Origin: Alphaproteobacteria bacterium
GTDB taxonomy: Bacteria; Pseudomonadota; Alphaproteobacteria; G965222575
Assembly (NCBI GenBank): GCA_965222575.1
Contig: OZ244958.1
Span: 448,001-512,000, forward strand
Reading direction: 5' to 3'
Length of the DNA: 64,000 bases
Within the stretch, counting starts at the first letter, position 1; each line of letters opens with the position of its first letter. Both the position numbers and the translations under genes were made by a program. Positions 3,507 through 27,163 of the stretch are shown here, piece by piece. The notes below the pieces were generated by a model. It worked only from the letters and a program-made list of their open reading frames with translations. It was not told where the DNA came from and made no database searches.

Positions 3507-4141
3507 AAGACACAACCGTTAGTAAAAACTGGTTCACAAGTCGCGGCGTGCCTAGACAGGGCATCCCTAAAATTTTACTCAGTGTTTCACATGAAACGCT
3601 TACAAAGCTTGAAGCCTATGTAGAAATGGTAAAAAAATGGAACAAAGCCGTAAAGTTAGTAGGACAAAACGATTACCACATTCTTTGGCCACGCCATGTT
3701 TGCGATAGCGCTTTATTATTAGAAGGCTTGTCTCATTATCCAAAAAAATGGCTGGACTTAGGGAGCGGCGGCGGATTTCCCGGACTCGTCTTAGCAATCC
3801 TAGGCGTGGAAAATATGCACTTAGTAGAACGAAACAGCAAAAAATCTTGCTTCCTCAAGGAGGCTGTACGACAACTGGGTCTTGCCGCTACCGTCCACCA
3901 CAACAGAGTGGAACAACTCACTCATTTAGGCACTTTCCCCTTCATATCAGCTAGAGGAATGGGCAAACTTCATGACCTCCTTCCTTTAATAACTCCTTTT
4001 ATGAACTCCGATACCATTGCCCTTATCCCTTCCGCCCGAAAGATACAACCCCAAAAGTTTGCGCCGTTCAAAATTTCCTCTATTCCCTCTCCTCTTTATC
4101 GCCACCATGTGATTCTGAAAATCAAACGCACCTCTTCTTAA
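3503..4141 (+). CDS. rsmG: 16S rRNA m7G527 methyltransferase RsmG (GidB)
   Basis: [21 protein letters not shown] motif, follows mnmG. Confidence 0.95.
3583..3598. promoter_or_regulatory. parS centromere-like site inside rsmG
   Basis: TGTTTCACATGAAACG versus consensus TGTTTCACGTGAAACA (2 mismatches), about 600 bp upstream of parB. Confidence 0.8.
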
Positions 4142-4211: not shown

Positions 4212-5060
4212 ATGAAAAAAAAGAAAACCTCTAGAACATCTTCTAATTTTTCAACAGACCAAAGACAAGAAGAGTTCATAGTCAAAAAACTGCCGCTTCA
4301 CAGTTTAGAGGCCAACACTTATCAGCCAAGAGAACATTGGGATGAAGAGGCGCTAGATGCTCTTGCGGGGTCTTTGAAAAAGAGCGGCGTTTTGCAACCG
4401 ATTTTGGTGCGCCCCCTTGGAGACGAAAGATATCAGATTATAGCCGGAGAGCGGCGTTGGAGGGCAGCAACACAGGCGGGACTCTCTCATATTACTGCTG
4501 TGATACAGTCCTGTACAGAAAGAGAGTCCTTAGAGAAAGCGCTGTTGGAAAATCTACAAAGAGAGAATCTCAAAGCCCTTGAGGAGGCAACGGCTTATCA
4601 ACTGCTCAAAGAGGAATTCCTTTTATCTCCCAACGATATTGCCGAAGTCATAGGAAAAAGCCGTAGTTATGTGGTCAACACCATACGGCTCCTATCTCTG
4701 CCTCAAGAGATTAAAAATTGGTTAAATGAAGGGCTTTTATCCCCGGGAGGTGCTAGGGCTTTACTGAAGGCAGAATCCCCCTTGGACATTGCGAAAAAAG
4801 CCATCAAATGGAAGATGACCGTACGACAAATAGAAAACATGGTCAAAGCAGAAAAACACAGACTGCCCTTTCTGAACCGTTTGCTCATCTCCAAGACAGA
4901 ACAAGCCTTTATCACCTCCATAGCCCAATCCCTCAAAACCTCTGTCCGCATCACACTTCAAGGGAGAAATCGTTATCTCGTCATTACCTTAAATCAACAG
5001 GATATACTACAGCAGTTGAAAACCCTTCTGGAGAAAAATGCAAAGAAAAAAATGCCGTAG
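4212..5060 (+). CDS. parB: Chromosome partitioning protein ParB
   Basis: YQPR, GVLQPILVR, IIAGERRWRAA, LENLQRENL, HTH GKSRSYVVNTIRLL. Confidence 0.96.
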   Translation: MKKKKTSRTSSNFSTDQRQEEFIVKKLPLHSLEANTYQPREHWDEEALDALAGSLKKSGVLQPILVRPLGDERYQIIAGERRWRAATQAGLSHITAVIQSCTERESLEKALLENLQRENLKALEEATAYQLLKEEFLLSPNDIAEVIGKSRSYVVNTIRLLSLPQEIKNWLNEGLLSPGGARALLKAESPLDIAKKAIKWKMTVRQIENMVKAEKHRLPFLNRLLISKTEQAFITSIAQSLKTSVRITLQGRNRYLVITLNQQDILQQLKTLLEKNAKKKMP

Positions 5061-18794: not shown

Positions 18795-19588
18795 GGAAAA
18801 ATAGGGCGCAGTAAGGAAAGAATATCTTGATAATCTAAGGTAACAAAGACGTCCTTCTCCAATAACGGCTTCCCTGTAGACACAAAATAAAGACGACTCG
18901 GGTGAGTCGTGGACAACAAAATCGTCTCCTCAAAGGGAAATTCCCGCTCCCCAGAAAAAAACCCAGAAAAAATCACCTCATGGAAAGTCTTAATTCTCAC
19001 CCAGACAGGCAGAGAAGACCGCAACCGAAATTGGTCCGGAAGAGAGGGGACTCCTCCCTCAGAAGAAGAAATACCCTCTTGAGAAAGAGGCAGCACACCC
19101 TCAGGAGAAACCCTCTCCTCTTGAGGCAAAAAGGGCACTTTATCAGAAACAGAAGGCAGAGATTGCGCTTGGGGAAGAGAAGAGGAAGGCGGCAGAAGAG
19201 AAGAAGAACGAAACAGAGCATTTTCTACAGTAATCCCTATAACCCCTATGAAGACAACACTTGCAATCACCAAAAGAGGAAAGGAAAAATCACGTCTGGA
19301 CTTGAAAAAGGCACGCGGTGCCTTCTTAGACGTTTGCGCATAATAATCCCCTAGGGCAAGAGAGGAAAACTCTATCTCAAGCAAGGGGCATAAAGCCCGC
19401 AAAAGACCCATCACATACGGCCGCGGCGGAAGGCGCGAAACCTCTCCTTTTTCCAAAGCTTCTAAGGTCTCAACCCGGACACAAAGAGAACGAGATAACG
19501 CCTCTAAACTCAGTCCCTTTTCCGCACGCAACTGCGCAATCTGTTCCCCAACTTGTAACCGCTTACGCTTTATCTTTTCCTCAGACAT
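18791..19588 (-). CDS. RodZ-like HTH membrane protein
   Basis: N-terminal HTH_25-like domain, single TM, Pro/Ser linker, WVRI motif, upstream of ispG. Confidence 0.75.
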
Positions 19589-19650
19589 TCCTATTCCCCA
19601 ACTATAACCCGTCCATCTTACCTATTGTAGGTTACCATAAAAAGACTCTT

Positions 19651-19678
19651 TTGACTAAACCCCCCTTTTAGCTATAAC
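19651..19678 (+). promoter_or_regulatory. Putative sigma70 promoter upstream of the HesB-family gene
   Basis: TTGACT-16 nt-TATAAC. Confidence 0.45.
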
Positions 19679-19722
19679 ATATTGACGTAGCTTTAACACA
19701 ATTTCTCCATTGTCATTTTCAT

Positions 19723-20058
19723 ATGCCACCCTTTACCTTTACCATAACACCCGTTGCACGCCGACGCATTAAAGCTCTCGTCACCAAAACCTCTCCCTGC
19801 TTCAGGTTGGAAATTAAGTCCGGCGGCTGTAAAGGCTTTCAGTATAACTTCGCCATGTGCTATAAACCTCTTAAGGAAGACCACGTCTTTATCATGAATA
19901 AAACAAACGGAAGCGCCGTGGTGATTGATAAAATGTCCGGACAATTCCTCAAAGGCGCTACCTTAGACTTCATAGAAACCGTCATGGAATCCGGATTCAT
20001 CGTCAAAGGCACAGATCTAGGCGCAAGCTGCGGTTGTCAGGTGTCTTTCTCCCTCTGA
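19723..20058 (+). CDS. HesB/IscA/ErpA family Fe-S carrier protein
   Basis: GGCKGFQY and SCGCQVSF. Confidence 0.92.
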   Translation: MPPFTFTITPVARRRIKALVTKTSPCFRLEIKSGGCKGFQYNFAMCYKPLKEDHVFIMNKTNGSAVVIDKMSGQFLKGATLDFIETVMESGFIVKGTDLGASCGCQVSFSL

Positions 20059-20129
20059 AGACCCTTGCTTTCCTCAAAAAGGGTATGCTATTCTCTTCTC
20101 TTCTTCAATAAGGGATACCCCTCTTTTCC

Positions 20130-20450
20130 ATGTTCTACGAACTCACCCTCATTACACGACCTGATTTATCCCAAAAAGAACTAGAGGAAGTCACCTTCCT
20201 CTGTGAAGAAGAACTCAAAAAACAGGAAGCAACCCTCAAAGGTATTGAACATTGGGGAACAAAAACGCTTGCCTACCGCATCGGAAAACACAGAAGAGGG
20301 ACTTATGTCTTCCTCAAAATCGACTCAAAAATGCCGCTCAACGCCTTAGAAAAAACCCTAGCACTCAATAGTAAAATCTTGCGCTCCTTAACAGTGCGCG
20401 TAAAAGAATTCTCCCAAGAAGACACACCTCTTCTTCAGAAAACAACATGA
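20130..20450 (+). CDS. rpsF: 30S ribosomal protein S6
   Basis: [22 protein letters not shown]. Confidence 0.96.
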
Positions 20451-20472
20451 ACCCAATCTCGAAATCCCCCTC

Positions 20473-20721
20473 ATGAAACTCAAAATCATCACTCCCCCAC
20501 AAAAAAACCCCCAGACCCATCCCCATGATAAACAACCCACCATACCAAAGGTCATCGATTACAAAGACCCCAACAGTCTAAAGCCTTTCATCTCCGAACG
20601 AGGACGGATTATGCCCTCGCGTATCTCAGGCGTGCCCCCTAAAAAACAAAAAGAAATCACGTGTGCCATTAAACGTGCTCGATTCCTATGCCTCCTCCCT
20701 TACGTCAACAAAAGATTCTAA
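20473..20721 (+). CDS. rpsR: 30S ribosomal protein S18 (divergent N-terminus)
   Basis: [30 protein letters not shown]. Confidence 0.95.
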
Positions 20722-20727
20722 ACAATT

Positions 20728-21474
20728 ATGGAGATCATTTTACTGCAGAGAATCAAAAACCTCGGCCAAATGGGCGATGTCGTCTCCGTTAAACGGGGAT
20801 TCGCTAGAAACTACCTCCTACCACAAGCAAAAGCTATACTAGCAACAAAAGAAAACCGCGCGCAACTCAAAGACAATTGGGCCCAACTCGAAGCCCGTAA
20901 CCTCGAAAAGAAAAGCGAGGCTGAAGCCTTACGAAAAAAAATTCAAACCCTAGAAATCATCACCATTGAACATGCCGGAGAAAATGGACACCTCTATGGT
21001 TCCGTAAAAGCACAAAAAATCGCTGCCCTCTTAAAAAATAAACAAAATATTTCCATCCTCACAAACCAAATCCTACTGGAACATCCCATCAAAACCATAG
21101 GTCTACATGAAGTACAACTCCTGCTGCACCCAGAAGTGGAAATGACCCTACCCGTATGGGTTGCACGCACACAAGGAGAAGCGAAAACCCTAAAAGATCA
21201 CTTCAAAAACCAAGAACTTAAAGCCGGCGAAAACCCTATCACAGCCCTCTCAAATCGTAAACCCCCTGCCACAGAAGACCACAAAGAAAAAAAAGAGACC
21301 AGCAAAAAACCTCATAAAGACACCCAAAGTCCGCCACCAAAACAAGGGGAAAAAACCGCAAGCACAACACCCAAAGACAAGAAAGCCATCCCTGTTGCCA
21401 CAAAAAAGAAAGACCCGTCAACAAAGACCAGGACACCAGAAAAAGAGGAAAAAACCCTTCCCACAGAGAGTTAG
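20728..21474 (+). CDS. rplI: 50S ribosomal protein L9 with long Lys/Thr/Pro-rich C-terminal extension
   Basis: GDVVSVKRGFARNYLLP, LYGSV, PIKTIG, LHPEV; last 14 codons lie in repeat unit 1. Confidence 0.96.
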   Translation: MEIILLQRIKNLGQMGDVVSVKRGFARNYLLPQAKAILATKENRAQLKDNWAQLEARNLEKKSEAEALRKKIQTLEIITIEHAGENGHLYGSVKAQKIAALLKNKQNISILTNQILLEHPIKTIGLHEVQLLLHPEVEMTLPVWVARTQGEAKTLKDHFKNQELKAGENPITALSNRKPPATEDHKEKKETSKKPHKDTQSPPPKQGEKTASTTPKDKKAIPVATKKKDPSTKTRTPEKEEKTLPTES

Positions 21475-24003
21475 GGCAGGTTGCACTTGAGAGGGGTAGG
21501 GCAGACTGAGCTTGAGAGGGATAGGGGTAGCGCCTTGCGGGGGACACCAGAGAAAGAGGAAAAAAACCTTCCCACAGAGAGTTAGGGTAGGTTGCACTTG
21601 AGAGGGGTAGGGCAGGAGCTTGAGAGGGTAGGGCAACCTGCGGGGGACACCAGAGAAAGAGGAAAAAAAACCCTTCCCACAGAGAGTTAAGGTAGGTTGC
21701 ACTTGAGAGGGGTAGGGCAGACTGAGCTTGAGAGGGATAGGGGTAGCGCCTTGCGGGGGACACCAGAGAAAGAGGAAAAAAACCTTCCCACAGAAAGTTA
21801 GGGTAGGTTGCACTTGAGAGGGGTAGGGCAGGCTGAGTTTGAGGGGGAGCATCTTGCGGGGGACACCAGAGAAAAAGGAAAAAACCCTTCCCACAGAGAG
21901 TTAAGGTAGGTTGCACTTGAGAGGGGTAGGGCAGGCTGAGCTTGGGAGGGTAGGGCAACCTTGCGGGGGACACCGGAAAGGGAAAAAACCTTTCCCACAG
22001 AAGAGTTAGGGTAGGTTGCACTTGAGAGAGGGGTGTCCTGCGGGGGACACCAGAGAAAGAGGAAAAACCCTTCCCACAGAGAGTTAAGGTAGGTTGCACT
22101 TAGGGTAGGGCACTTGAGAGGGGTGCTTCACTTGAGAGGGTAGGGCAACCCTGCGGGGGACACCAGAGAAAGAGGAAAAAATCCTTCCCACAGAGAGTTA
22201 GGGTAGGTTGCACTTGAGAGGGTTAGGGCAGGCTGAGTTTGAGAGGGTAGGGCAACCCTGCGGGGGACATCAGAGAAAGAGGAAAAAAAACCCTCCCACA
22301 GAGAGTTAAGGTAGGTTGCACTTGAGAGGGGTAGGGCAGACTGAGCTTGAGAGGGATAGGGGTAGCGCCTTGCGGGGGACACAGAGAAAGAGGAAAAAAA
22401 ACCTTCCCACAGAGAGTTAGGGCAGGTTGCACTTGAGAGAGGTAGGGGGAGCATCTTGCGGGGGACACCAGAAAGAGGAAAAAAACCCTCCCACAGAGAG
22501 TTAGGGTAGGCTTCACTTGAGAGAGTTAGGGGTAGCACCTTGCGGGGGACACCAGAAAGAGGAAAAAATCCTTCCCACAGAGAGTTAAGGTAGGTTGCAC
22601 TTGAGAGGGGTACCTTGCGGGGGACACCAGAGAAAGAGGCTCCCACAGAGAGTTTGCAGAGGGGTAGGGCAACCTGCGGGGGACACCAGAGAAAGAGGAA
22701 AAAACCCTTCCCACAGAGAGTTAAGGTAGGTTGCACTTGAGAGGGTTAGGGGTAGCGCCTTGCGGGGGACACCAGAGAAAGAGGGAAAAAACCCTCCCAC
22801 AGAGAGTTAAGGTAGGTTGCACTTGAGAGGGTTAGGGCAGGCTGAGCTTGAGAGGGTAGGGCAACCTTGCGGGGGACACCAGAGAAAGAGGAAAAAAAAC
22901 CCTTCCCACAGAGAGTTAAGGTAGGTTGCACTTGAGAGGGGTAGGGCAGGTTGCACTTGAGAGGGGTAAGGGGAGGGTAGGGCAACCTTGCGGGGGACAC
23001 CAGAGAAAGAGGAAAAAAAACCCTTCCCACAGAGAGTTAAGGTAGGTTGCACTTGAGAGGGGTAGGGCAGGCTGAGCTTGGGAGGGTAGGGCAACCTTGC
23101 GGGGGACACCAGAGAAAGAGGAAAAAAAACCCTTCCCACAGAGAGTTAAGGTAGGTTGCACTTGAGAGGGTAGGGCAACCTTGCGGGGGACACCAGAGAA
23201 AAAGGAAAAAACCCTTCCCACAGAGAGTTAAGGTAGGTTGCACTTGAGAGGGGTAAGGCAGACTGAGCTTGAGAGGGATAGGGGTAGCGCCTTGCGGGGG
23301 ACACCAGAGAAAGAGGAAAAAAACCTCCCCACAGAGAGTTAGAGTAGGTTGCACTTGAGAGGGGTAAGGCAGGCTTCACTTGAGAGGGTAGGGCAACCCT
23401 GCGGGGGACACATCAGAGAAAGAGGGAAAAACCCTTCCCACAGAGAGTTAGGGCAACCCTGCGGGGGACACCAGAGAAAAAGGAAAAAACCCTTCCCACA
23501 GAGAGTTAGGGCAGGTTGCACTTGAGAGAGTTAGGGGTGCCCTCTACGGGGGACACCAGAGAAAAAGGGAAAAACCCTTCCCACAGAGAGTTAGGGTAGG
23601 TTGCACTTGAGAGAGGTAGGGGGAGCATCTTGCGGGGGACACCAGAGAAAGAGGAAAAAACCTTTCCCACAGAAGAATTAGGGTAGGTTGAACTTGAGAG
23701 GGGTAGGGCAGGCTGAGCTTGAGAGGGTAGGGCAACCTTGCGGGGGACACCAGAGAAAGAGGAAAAAAACCCTCCCACAGAGAGTTAGGGCAGGTTGCAC
23801 TTGAGAGAGGTAGGGGGAGCATCTTGCGGGGGACACCAGAAAAAGAGGAAAAAACCCTTCCCACAGAAAGTTAGGGTAGGTTGAACTTGAGAGAGTTAAA
23901 AACAGAAGAATTAGGGTAGGTTGCACTTGAGAGGGGTAAGGCAGGCTTCACTTGAGAGGGTAGGGCAACCCTGCGGGGGACACCAGAGAAAGAGGAAAAA
24001 ACC
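21431..24003 (+). repeat. Hierarchical tandem repeat array, 27 core copies (last truncated), unit length 59-147 bp
   Basis: Core TGCGGGGGACACCAGAGAAAGAGG(A)nCCCTTCCCACAGAGAGTTA recurs (GGACAC at 21431, 21542, 21645, 21758 ... 23831, 23978), separated by 0-3 modules of about 24 bp such as TAGGGTAGGTTGCACTTGAGAGGGG. Confidence 0.98.
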
Positions 24004-24516
24004 TTACTTTCCCTTAGATACCACAACCCGCGCCGCTCTAATCAGATAATCCCCACAACAATACCCTTGCTGTAACACCTCCAAAATAGTCCCTTGGGGA
24101 ACTACCTCTGATTCTTTATAGGATATCGCTTCATGAAAATAGGCATCAAAAACCTCTCCCTCAGGATTAATAGCGACTATATCCTGAGAAGACAAAAACT
24201 CCATAAACTGTTTATAAATCAACAAAAGACCTTCCTTAAGGGCTTTATCCTGCGTCTTCACAGAAGATAAAGCCCGGTCAAAATTATCTAAAATATCGCA
24301 AAGAGGGCGAACAATTTGCGCTATAGTTAGTAACCGTTGTTGCTCTCTTTCTCTCCGCTCACGCGCCCGGATGTTTTGCTGCTCCGCAAGCGCCCTTAAT
24401 AAATCATCCCTAAGCGTCCTAAGCTCCCCCTCCAACACTTTAACCTTAGAAACTCCCGAACGCTTCTTTTTTCCCTTCAAAGAAACAGGTACTTCAGAGG
24501 ACACTCTCTCAGACAT
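24004..24516 (-). CDS. grpE: Nucleotide exchange factor GrpE
   Basis: LRALAEQQNIRAR, LDNFDRAL, FDAYFHEAI, QQGY..IRAARVVV. Confidence 0.95.
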   Translation of the reverse strand: MSERVSSEVPVSLKGKKKRSGVSKVKVLEGELRTLRDDLLRALAEQQNIRARERREREQQRLLTIAQIVRPLCDILDNFDRALSSVKTQDKALKEGLLLIYKQFMEFLSSQDIVAINPEGEVFDAYFHEAISYKESEVVPQGTILEVLQQGYCCGDYLIRAARVVVSKGK

Positions 24517-24593
24517 AAAATCACTCTTAACAAAACTATGATAAAAACGCTAACATATGCTACTATAACATAATATATAAGCATCACCACCCC

Positions 24594-25232
24594 ATGATAC
24601 AAGATGCTACCTTGCTCCTAGGGTCCACCAATAAGGGAAAAATCCGCGAATTCCAGCAACTGCTACAGGGAAAAACCCTCCTCACCGTGCCACAAAACCT
24701 CCTAACACCAAAGGAAACCGCCAACTCCTTCGAAAAAAATGCCCTCCTCAAAGCTAAAGCCTACGCCACACAAACACAAACTATCACCTTAGCTGACGAC
24801 TCAGGCTTCTGCGTCAAAGCCCTAGGACATAAACCAGGACTCCTCTCCGCTCAATGGATCCAACAGGCCGGCTCCTCTGAAAAAGCTTGCGAAAAAATCC
24901 ACCAAGACCTCAATTCCCTCAAACACACTACAACACACGCCTACTTCAAAACCGCTCTCGTCCTCTTCTACCCCAACACACAACAAGCCTTTACCTTCAC
25001 AGGAAGTGTACACGGACACATCATATGGCCCCCAAAAGGAAGAAACGGATTCGGTTACGACCCTATCTTCACCCCTCACAAACAAAACAAAACCTTCGCT
25101 CAAATGACACAACAACAAAAAAATACCCTAAGCCACAGAGCCGCCGCCGTGGCTAAACTCATCCAATTCCTATCCCTCTACCCCCTCAACACTATCCCTC
25201 CTAAATCCACTCCCTCACAGATACAATTTTAA
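24594..25232 (+). CDS. rdgB: Non-canonical purine NTP pyrophosphatase (RdgB/HAM1)
   Basis: STNKGKIRE, ADDSG, GFGYDPIF, SHR. Confidence 0.95.
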   Translation: MIQDATLLLGSTNKGKIREFQQLLQGKTLLTVPQNLLTPKETANSFEKNALLKAKAYATQTQTITLADDSGFCVKALGHKPGLLSAQWIQQAGSSEKACEKIHQDLNSLKHTTTHAYFKTALVLFYPNTQQAFTFTGSVHGHIIWPPKGRNGFGYDPIFTPHKQNKTFAQMTQQQKNTLSHRAAAVAKLIQFLSLYPLNTIPPKSTPSQIQF

Positions 25233-25369
25233 AAAAAAATACACAAAATAAGACTTCTCATGACAAAGACCCTCCACAAAAAGACCGACTTTCTCCATTT
25301 TCTCCTTGATAACAATTGCCATTTCACGCTATAAAATTACCCTAGTAACTTCAAAATCCTCAGGACTAC

Positions 25370-25885
25370 ATGACATACCTCTATCCTTCCTCCTTCGCAA
25401 AAAAAGACCTCCTCACCGTAACCATAGGCAAACTCTTCAAACATAACATACACGCACGCCTGCCAAAACCCCCCTTGCTCATGGTAGATAGAATCCTCCA
25501 TATTAGCAAAAAAGGCGGAAAATTCAATAAAGGAGAGGTCATCGCCGAACTCGATATTAAACCAGATATGTGGTTCTTCGATTGCCATTTCGACCGCGAC
25601 CCCGTTATGCCAGGATGCCTCGGATTAGACGCTCTATGGCAACTCATTGGCTTCTTCTTAAGCTGGACAGGCCTCAACGGAAAAGGACGCGCCTTAGGCG
25701 TCGGTAGAGTCAAATTCTCAGGACAAATCTTGCCAGAAAAAACTTGCATCACTTACCACCTGCACTTCCGACGCTTCATGCTCTCTAAAAAAATCTCCCT
25801 CGGCATCGCTTACGGTACCGTCTCCCATAAAGGAGAAATCGTCTACGAGGCAGAAGACCTAAGAACAGGACTCATTCCAGCTTAA
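25370..25885 (+). CDS. fabA: 3-hydroxydecanoyl-ACP dehydratase/isomerase FabA
   Basis: WFFDCHF..DPVMPGCLGLDALWQL, GKGRALGVG. Confidence 0.96.
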   Translation: MTYLYPSSFAKKDLLTVTIGKLFKHNIHARLPKPPLLMVDRILHISKKGGKFNKGEVIAELDIKPDMWFFDCHFDRDPVMPGCLGLDALWQLIGFFLSWTGLNGKGRALGVGRVKFSGQILPEKTCITYHLHFRRFMLSKKISLGIAYGTVSHKGEIVYEAEDLRTGLIPA

Positions 25886-25937
25886 AACCTCCCCCTCACC
25901 AAAAAGGACAGAAAACCCCCATGCCAACTACCAAAAC

Positions 25938-27163
25938 ATGACAAAAAATCACAATAGACGCGTCGTCATCACAGGAATCGGTATCGTCTCCTGTATCGGA
26001 AATAATACCACAGAAGTCACTCACTCCCTCAAAAACGGCCTCGGCGGTATCACCTCCTGTGAAGCACAAAAACAATTCGGCCTCAAAAGCCAAGTCTCAG
26101 GACGTACCTCCATAGACACCAAAAGCAAAATCGAAAAAAAAATCCGCCGCTTCATGTCCCCATCAAGCTGCTATGCCTTCATCGCCACAGAAGAAGCCCT
26201 GAAAACCGCTAACCTCAATAAAGAAGATATCGCACAATCCCCAAAAATAGGCCTCATCGTCAGTACAGGCGGTAGCTCCGTGGATACAGAAATCCACGCC
26301 GTGAATATCGGAAAAACCAAAGGCGTAAAATTCGTCAGCCCCTTCACCGTCCCAAAATGTATGTCCTCTACCGCCTCCGCTAACCTCGCTACAGCTTTCC
26401 AAATCACAGGCATCTCCTACTCCATCACCGCCGCTTGCTCCACCTCCGCTCACTGCATCGGACACAGCGCAGACCTCATCATCTCAGGAAAACAAGACCT
26501 CGTCATCGCAGGCGGCGCAGAAGAACATAGCGTCTTCTCCTCCATGATGTTCGATGCCATGGGCGCTCTCACCTCACAATATAATCACACCCCTAATACC
26601 GCCTCCCGTACCTATGATAAAGACAGAGACGGATTCGCCATCGCAGAAGGCGCAGGTATCCTCATCCTAGAAGAAAGAGAAAGAGCTCTACGCAGAAACG
26701 CACCACTCTACGCCGAACTCATCGGATACGGCGCAAACTCAGACGGCGATAGCATGGTACGACCCTCCGGTAACGGCGCCGCCCTCTGCATGAAAGCCTC
26801 CCTACAACAAATCACCGAAAACGATATCTCCTATATCAATACACACGGAACCTCAACTCCCGCAGGCGATATCATAGAACTCATGGCTATCAAAAATGTC
26901 TTCAATCATCATATCCCTCCCATCAGCTCTACAAAATCCCTCACCGGACACAGCCTCGGCGCAGCAGGCGCTCACGAAGCCATCTACAGCATCCTCATGC
27001 TACACCACAGCTTCATCGCCCCTTCCATCAATATCCAAAATATGGACGAAAACGCTAAAAACTTCCCCATCATCACTCAACCAACAAACCAACCCCTCAA
27101 CGCTGTCCTGACTAACTCCTTCGGCTTCGGCGGCACAAATGCTTGCTTGGTCTTCAAAAAACC

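Follow-up and report, generated by a model that had tools for sequence, protein, structure and literature searches.

Between the convergent genes rplI and grpE of a small alphaproteobacterial genome lies a tandem array that fills the gap completely. The array occupies positions 21431..24003 (+ strand) of the window, the 64,000-nt stretch of DNA analyzed here, which corresponds to bases 448001-512000 of a genome assembled as one contig of 1,215,846 bp (G000:C1). It consists of 26 full units of 59-147 bp and a 30-bp partial unit, arranged head-to-tail and non-coding. The rpsF, rpsR, and rplI genes lie upstream on the + strand, and grpE lies downstream on the - strand; beyond it is a Ham1-family gene in divergent orientation. 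The array is far beyond chance, and is best read as the largest of the genome's many fast-changing repeat arrays, not as a new genetic system.

Anatomy of the array and its borders

Cut at CGGGGGACA, the + strand yields 26 start points, which make 27 cores together with a truncated first core at 21431, and this motif splitting reproduced exactly the 27 cores and the spacings that an earlier note on this DNA had listed. Unit 1 is 107 bp long from 21431, or 111 bp if counted from the equivalent core position, and the core spacings that follow it are 103, 113, 103, 107, 77, 113, 107, 112, 86, 84, 75, 59, 86, 107, 121, 109, 84, 111, 107, 60, 85, 86, 108, 86, and 147 bp. Tandem Repeats Finder (TRF) applied to 21431-23895 returned 19 overlapping rows with periods of 25, 58, 82-86, 108-111, and 183-230 and scores up to 1088. 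Two core anchors, allowing at most one error, were found 25/25 inside the array and 0 times elsewhere on the same strand of the 1,215,846-bp genome, with one chance match on the opposite strand.

Each unit was split again at TAGGG/TAAGG, which opens every module in the array, and the resulting grammar is a core of ~45 bp (CGGGGGACACC...CCCACAGAGAGT), followed by zero to three modules of ~25 bp and closed by an end piece of 12-16 bp. The near-invariant blocks of the core are GGACA and CCCACAGA, and its poly-A run, described earlier as varying in length, measures 3-8. Module A, of 25 bp, directly follows the core and ends in ...GGTTGCACTTGAGAGGGG; module B, of 24-25 bp, is present in about half of the units and ends in ...GGCTGAGCTTGAGAGGG and variants. 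Among the 26 units the end piece is T1 in 13, T2 in 6, T3 in 4, and of other forms in 3, and the decomposition recovered the entire vocabulary proposed earlier, modules A, B, and C and three end pieces. The number of modules per unit, end piece included, is one in 4 units, two in 8, three in 11, and four in 3. Because this number varies, the unit lengths fall into classes near 60, 85, and 109 bp, and whole modules account for all of the unit length variation in the array. At each module junction ...CTTGAGAGGG(G) is followed by TAGGG, and this 12-15-bp junction recurs every 25 bp.

The length classes can be seen in individual units. Unit 17 (22991..23099, + strand, 109 bp) is a long unit in which the core is followed by module A, module B, and end piece T1; unit 18 (23100..23183, +, 84 bp) is of middle length, with core, module A, and T1; and unit 21 (23402..23461, +, 60 bp) is minimal, a core joined to T1 without a module. 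The longest, unit 26 (23827..23973, +, 147 bp), is two fused units, the second of which keeps only a 16-bp core remnant. A partial core of 30 bp (23974..24003, +) closes the array, directly against the grpE stop codon.

The + strand of the array is rich in G and in purines (G 35.8, A 31.4, C 17.8, T 14.9%), and the composition switches exactly at the stop codons of both rplI and grpE. The + strand GC skew is +0.26 to +0.37 in the array and -0.25 to -0.6 in its surroundings, a contrast consistent with a turnover that outpaces the local mutational bias.

On the upstream side, the array reaches into a gene. The rplI gene (20728..21474, +) encodes a ribosomal protein L9 of 248 aa, with Pfam domains Ribosomal_L9_N at residues 1-47 and L9_C at residues 64-146; the domains end at residue 146 and a 100-residue low-complexity tail rich in K, P, T, and E comes afterwards. 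The first core copy (21431..21474, +) begins 44 bp before the rplI stop and codes for the last 14 residues of L9 (RTPEKEEKTLPTES), in frame with rplI and reading like the rest of the tail, and the TAG of the rplI stop is the TAG that opens the first module. The grpE gene on the other side (24004..24516, -; 170 aa, complete) matches Pfam GrpE at residues 18-168 with an E value of 2.8e-39. The earlier placement of the array, from inside the rplI coding sequence to the grpE stop, is therefore accurate: it overlaps the last 44 bp of rplI, and its final base, 24003, immediately precedes the grpE stop. A weak core-like stretch further up in the L9 tail (21335..21357, +; 19/23 identical to the core, local score 26) may be an old degenerate core copy, and the comparison is suggestive only: a score of 26 was reached by 0/1916 random 271-bp stretches of the window and by 1.1% of 1000 shuffles of the tail. 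Tails on L9 are common in the class. Matches were found in 119 other genomes, with alignments that mostly end near query residue 153-160 and L9 open frames that are mostly 160-260 aa, which places the tail described here at the long end; one unpublished genome, G040, is included in this comparison, and nothing rests on it.

The gap between rplI and grpE measures 2529 bp, the largest in the window by crude open reading frame (ORF) calls and the fifth largest in the genome, where ankyrin-type arrays occupy three of the four gaps that exceed it. The statement that other gaps in the region are under 400 bp was nearly right, the next gaps in the window by the same calls being 654, 445, and 392 bp.

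Unit order and occurrence elsewhere

How are the units arranged along the array? The most similar unit is a neighbor in 0/26 units, where a random order would give ~2 adjacent best partners, and best partners lie a median of 8 units apart. Mean unit identity is flat with lag (|z|<1.4 versus shuffled order at lags 1-19), and this lag profile holds no array-wide higher-order period. The description of the array as higher-order therefore stands only locally, in two-unit blocks with TRF periods of 216, 230, and 193 at 1.8-2.8 copies, and a regular higher-order satellite was rejected, there being no fixed-period multi-unit block along the array. Exact stretches of 70-101 bp are common to places up to 1757 bp apart, those of 70-96 bp recurring over distances of 1.1-1.8 kb, and at two independent variant sites all four combinations of TAAGG or TAGGG with T1 or T2 occur (6, 4, 6, and 2), two of the TAGGG-T1 units being without module A. 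The order is a mosaic, and these four-gamete combinations, distant exact stretches, and missing neighbor matches bear out the earlier claim that variants recur non-adjacently in new combinations. Such a mosaic bears the mark of unequal exchange and gene conversion rather than of any designed combinatorial code. Reshuffling of this sort is expected of any minisatellite under unequal recombination or gene conversion, so that it is no argument for function by itself. Conservation among copies is much higher in the cores than in the modules.

The sequence is private to this locus. The array sequence was found in 0/40 nearest genomes, all only of the same class, and in 0/400 genomes of the class; exact 22-mers gave 0 matches in genome_contigs and 0 in metagenome_contigs; and the plasmid and phage collections gave 0 array matches. 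In the genome itself, masked at the array, an nhmmer profile of the unit had no relative (best E 1.3). A search with core and modules of the organism's own genome and its relatives, which the earlier note had proposed, points to a single locus and not to a dispersed family. Judged by these comparisons, conservation outside the strain cluster appears to be nil.

The locus is present, as array-like unitigs and both array edges, in public short-read assemblies of three runs (X1, X2, and X3) from two studies. The flanking contigs of X1 and X2 break off at 21460 and resume at 23976 or 24002, and the interior of the array is represented by unitigs of 60-110 nt; some bins of the array are without contig cover in both runs, and contig depth is unsuited to an estimate of copy number. 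The rplI flank in X2 and in X3 does not match that of the reference, so neither is the reference strain.

Tandem repeats across the genome

The array does not stand alone. TRF found 230 repeat regions totaling 61.9 kb in the genome, and with the settings of PMC3287509 (2,7,7, score 50) it returned 378 rows, which cover 54.9 kb without overlap (4.5% of the genome) or 98.3 kb if summed (8.1%). There are 65 arrays of at least 250 bp, 33 of them inside one ORF, many being 99-bp ankyrin repeats, and 32 not covered by an ORF. Removal of three ankyrin-type arrays and one array of clustered regularly interspaced short palindromic repeats (CRISPR) from the 32 leaves a set of 28, of which 10 lie between convergent ORFs, compared with 133/995 neighbor pairs (13%) in the genome (binomial p 0.0024; ORFs called crudely and greedily at >=90 aa). 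Non-ORF arrays are accordingly about three times commoner between convergent genes than expected.

Three further private arrays fill the whole gap between convergent genes confirmed by Pfam, some of them overlapping the gene ends by 2-96 bp. They lie at 187952-189078 (L122), 405825-406112 (L124), and 413900-415265 (L125), have units of 32, 70, and 121 bp, and are flanked by YchF and DUF805, by an FAA hydrolase and an SSF symporter, and by CheR and an OmpR-type response regulator, respectively. Each array of the genome has its own sequence and period: the periods run from 15 to 295 bp with no fixed period common to them, and neither nhmmer nor 9-mer sharing found significant similarity among the arrays. 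Each unit of four arrays has a single copy of the motif TGCGGGGGA; these are the one studied here and those at 540362-541039, 561079-561940, and 125140-125908. The motif was rejected as evidence of a family, 9-mers being shared by 90/406 array pairs, fewer than among random segments (134 +/- 11). Runs of G5 are frequent genome-wide, with 2508 and 2492 on the two strands. The arrays follow no replication orientation rule: among 18 arrays with skew, 10 have the G-rich strand as the leading strand and 8 as the lagging strand.

The genome is small and rich in ankyrin repeats, and contains recA, mutS, mutL, and rho. With best UvrB and GrpE matches at <=64% and <=39% identity, the organism is a deep-branching alphaproteobacterium; it is also symbiont-like. 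Three arrays of 2.5-3.1 kb with 99-bp ankyrin-type units, at 942235-945346, 872827-875835, and 91723-94190, are covered to only 51-59% by any single ORF; either consensus errors account for this or the ankyrin genes are broken or frameshifted.

Nature and origin of the array

What might explain a 2.6-kb array at this site? The units are head-to-tail, no frame is maintained, and the sequence is private, as in a non-coding single-locus minisatellite. We consider it probable that the array is a private, fast-turning, non-coding minisatellite of the variable number tandem repeat (VNTR) type, produced by slippage and unequal recombination and tolerated where 3' ends meet. Since a junction recurs every 25 bp and a core every 60-120 bp, two nested registers are possible, and replication slippage together with RecA-dependent unequal exchange or gene conversion would act in both. 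In the 25-bp register, gains and losses of modules would give the unit classes of 60, 85, and 109 bp; in the unit register, duplication, deletion, and conversion of units or two-unit blocks would give the mosaic order and the alike cores. Only 3' ends meet at the site, so no promoter is disturbed, and growth would halt at selected sequence, the grpE stop on one side and the end of a dispensable L9 tail on the other. The core is rich in A and, read in frame, resembles the L9 tail, so that the repeat unit may derive from a duplicated 3' end of rplI plus its trailer. Any role of the array is probably passive, as a 2.5-kb spacer and transcript run-off zone between the convergent genes. It is in this form that we infer the slippage and recombination mechanism, the origin from the rplI end, and neutrality.

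Several points weigh on the other side. A G-rich strand in a C-rich region could reflect selection rather than youth, although orientation is not consistent among the other arrays (10 against 8). The better keeping of the cores is explained by homogenization, and would be by a binding site too. Neutrality is read from an absence of signals. The bias toward convergent gaps depends on crude ORF calls, and would fit arrays that are tolerated there and arrays that are useful there equally well. Finally, the hallmark of a VNTR is variation of copy number among strains, and the short-read contigs break at both edges of the array and none spans it.

The array is of the same kind as known VNTR minisatellites, of which the closest are Wolbachia VNTR-105 and VNTR-141 and the repeats of Ehrlichia ruminantium. 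As the passages of PMC3287509 (Riegler et al. 2012) on these loci describe them, the Wolbachia VNTRs lie between genes and have units of 105-141 bp with short direct repeats inside them; in some copies 25-32 bp are deleted internally, the copies being otherwise very alike; and slipped-strand mispairing with concerted evolution is the explanation offered, no established function being given in those passages. The likeness extends to the setting, an intergenic array with internal repeats in a ~1.2-Mb, host-associated, ankyrin-rich alphaproteobacterial genome. In contrast, the Wolbachia loci so described have 1-7 copies and hairpins with 9-bp stems, whereas the array here has 27 copies, no hairpin signal, a regular three-level grammar, and a mosaic order, and is larger and more regularly modular. 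The sequences are unrelated, and of the two it is Wolbachia in which strain polymorphism has been shown.

In Table 4 of PMC3287509, E. ruminantium has a tandem-repeat share of 6.3%, termed the highest reported for bacteria, with 0.1-1.6% in seven other genomes. The share found here brackets that figure at 4.5% non-overlapping and 8.1% summed, the published total being one that may itself sum overlapping TRF rows. Section 6 of PMC10710844 describes the non-coding tandem repeats of E. ruminantium as actively expanding and contracting. Both are reduced alphaproteobacterial genomes with several percent of repeats; they differ in lineage, in their unrelated sequences, in the high coding density here, and in the concentration of arrays in convergent gaps, a bias not stated in the literature consulted. 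A literature search on tandem repeats at convergent bacterial genes likewise found nothing relevant among the entries listed. Unique-sequence satellites make up ~40% of bacterial satellites according to the portion of Subirana and Messeguer (2019, PMC6749651) consulted, which attaches no special significance to them and reports most prokaryotic satellites as short, with few species having many. The array resembles these in being non-coding, in occurring once in its genome, and in its private sequence, and differs in its length of 2.6 kb and in belonging to a genome with very many arrays.

Human hypervariable minisatellites, which are eukaryotic and meiotic, likewise have variant units interspersed non-periodically through unequal exchange and conversion. 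The interspersed variants are alike in the two, as a resemblance only.

An alternative to the minisatellite reading, which we regard as unlikely, is that the array is a functional buffer or terminator zone for convergent transcription, kept long against collision of the two transcription units. RNA of the grpE sense is C-rich and G-poor (C 36%, G 18%), the composition that Rho favors for loading, and is implied to be unstructured by the absence of a fold signal (eight unit strands, both strands, z -1.15 to +1.28 versus shuffles); RNA of the rplI sense is rich in G-tracts; and rho is present, the composition switches exactly at both stop codons, and non-ORF arrays are enriched in convergent gaps, several filling them stop to stop. 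However, a Rho site needs ~100 nt and not 2.5 kb, most convergent pairs in the genome are without an array, and the gaps between ORF neighbors have a median of 24 bp and exceed 1 kb in only 18/995. Terminator-like hairpins are not enriched in the array, with 15 against 10.3 +/- 3.3 in shuffles and all of them weak stems, and composition and orientation differ among the other arrays. G-quadruplex motifs could be counted in favor, as with one long loop of up to 16 nt allowed the + strand of the array has 14 and the - strand 0, a density of 5.4 per kb versus 0.47 per kb genome-wide, but the number falls to 3 with loops up to 12 nt and to 1 at the usual limit of 7 nt, and we set this signal aside because the count hangs too much on the loop rule.

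The same argument can be widened to the genome, whose arrays, with the one studied here as the most extreme, could be viewed not as junk but as a lineage-specific, self-expanding "terminator satellite," strand-asymmetric run-off zones where convergent genes meet. C-rich unstructured RNA would serve Rho on one side and G-tract-rich DNA or RNA would act on the other, and the length of each array would be a balance of slippage and selection against transcriptional collision. We think this improbable.

It is very unlikely that the array is a set of protein-binding sites, whether centromere-like, for titration, or nucleoid-organizing, with the 27 cores as putative sites. The number of cores, their near-invariant blocks, the 60-120-bp spacing, and the position of parB 17 kb away would suit such a role. 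The parB gene lies after mnmG at window positions 4284-4778, 17-18 kb from the array, and just upstream of it, at window position 3583 (genome 451583), is a parS-like 16-mer with 2 mismatches to the consensus. This was the best parS-like site, and none was found in the array with that consensus. DnaA boxes in the array, also by a consensus motif, number 0 at <=1 mismatch and 2 at <=2 mismatches. A parS array and a DnaA-box cluster were therefore rejected, as the cognate motifs were not found in the array. The core, moreover, is not palindromic and occurs nowhere else in the genome or the searched relatives, a spacing of 59-147 bp is poor for phased binding, and no partner gene is nearby among the ribosomal protein genes, grpE, and the Ham1-family gene.

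We give just as little weight to a decayed or frameshifted coding repeat, in the form of an expanded L9 tail or of a dead repeat-protein gene on the - strand. The first core does lie in the rplI frame and looks like the tail, and the - strand frames have few stops (12-20 per 937 codons, versus 45-54 on the + strand), with ORFs of 286 aa and 202 aa inside the array. The - strand frames are open because that strand has only 15% A, and the longest ORF covers 27% of the array. Spacings are divisible by three in 8/26 cases, which is the chance level, so that no frame lasts beyond a few units, and in each + strand unit TAG or TAA comes right after the core in the rplI frame. Pfam contains no family matching the 286-aa and 202-aa ORFs, and a search of the 286-aa ORF against 5.8 billion proteins, aimed at miscalled ORFs on related arrays, had as its sole match the array's own 202-aa ORF. 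A protein-coding tandem repeat was rejected on these grounds, with spacing not in threes, no ORF through the array, no Pfam family, and no homologue outside the array itself.

There is little chance that the locus is real and misassembled in length or unit order, by collapse, expansion, or chimerism: no record spans the array, short-read contigs break at its edges, poly-A lengths vary where long-read consensus is often wrong, and a unit variant with 13 additional letters at the 22531>23442 joint, not found in the reference, shows up in some X1 and X2 unitigs, but 94/130 contigs in X1 and 98/143 in X2 match the reference array or its flanks at >=99% identity, two or three runs confirm both junctions to unique sequence, and the genome is a single 1.2-Mb contig.

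Other classes of element were tried and rejected. A structured RNA family or tandem small RNA genes were set aside, as Rfam gave no match in the array (19000-27000 searched, E up to 1) and the units fold no better than shuffles; promoter-like sites inside the array were none, all three that were found lying outside it. A dispersed element of the repetitive extragenic palindromic (REP) or bacterial interspersed mosaic element (BIME) type, or one like a miniature inverted-repeat transposable element, was rejected, the array being a single locus without a stable hairpin in each unit. The genome has a CRISPR array at ~1,126,711-1,127,484 (L127:1528-2301), with 12 identical 36-nt repeats, 66-bp spacing, and unique spacers, and a Cas2 ORF at 1,127,528-1,127,848 adjoins it. 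This array and the one studied here have in common direct repeats with intervening sequence; unlike the fixed spacing and unique spacers of the former, the spacing here is 59-147 bp, the inter-core pieces recur from a small common vocabulary, and no cas gene lies beside it, and CRISPR was rejected. The earlier note was thus right that the array is neither CRISPR, nor REP/BIME, nor a coding repeat, given a single locus, no folds, no maintained frame, and a true CRISPR that differs. Its further suggestion of a functional array and an undescribed system fared less well: no RNA family, fold signal, promoter, parS, or DnaA boxes were found in the array, and ~28 other private non-ORF arrays exist in the same genome, several filling convergent gaps stop to stop. 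We found no evidence for either a function or a new genetic system.

The more useful results are at the level of the genome, in its very high tandem-repeat content and in the bias of non-ORF arrays to convergent gaps. The bias is testable in other repeat-rich genomes, where arrays merely tolerated at 3' ends could be told from arrays useful there. The locus itself can serve as it stands as a high-resolution marker for typing an uncultured, host-associated alphaproteobacterium, and it is an assembly hazard, with short-read contigs of two runs ending exactly at its edges. It also shows how the end of an essential gene can be rewritten by an array as it expands, since L9 takes its last 14 codons and its stop from the repeat. 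The repeats of E. ruminantium, too, reportedly remodel gene ends.

Strand asymmetry is very strong in both the window and the genome. Cumulative GC skew has its minimum near 570 kb and its maximum near 1140 kb, and dnaA, at 69-70 kb, is far from both. Elsewhere in the genome, an array at 121141-121893 has nine 84-bp units that are 98% alike, spanned by one - strand ORF, and it holds the genome's densest DnaA-box-like 9-mers (<=1 mismatch), 5 in 500 bp, consistent with about one per 84-bp unit.

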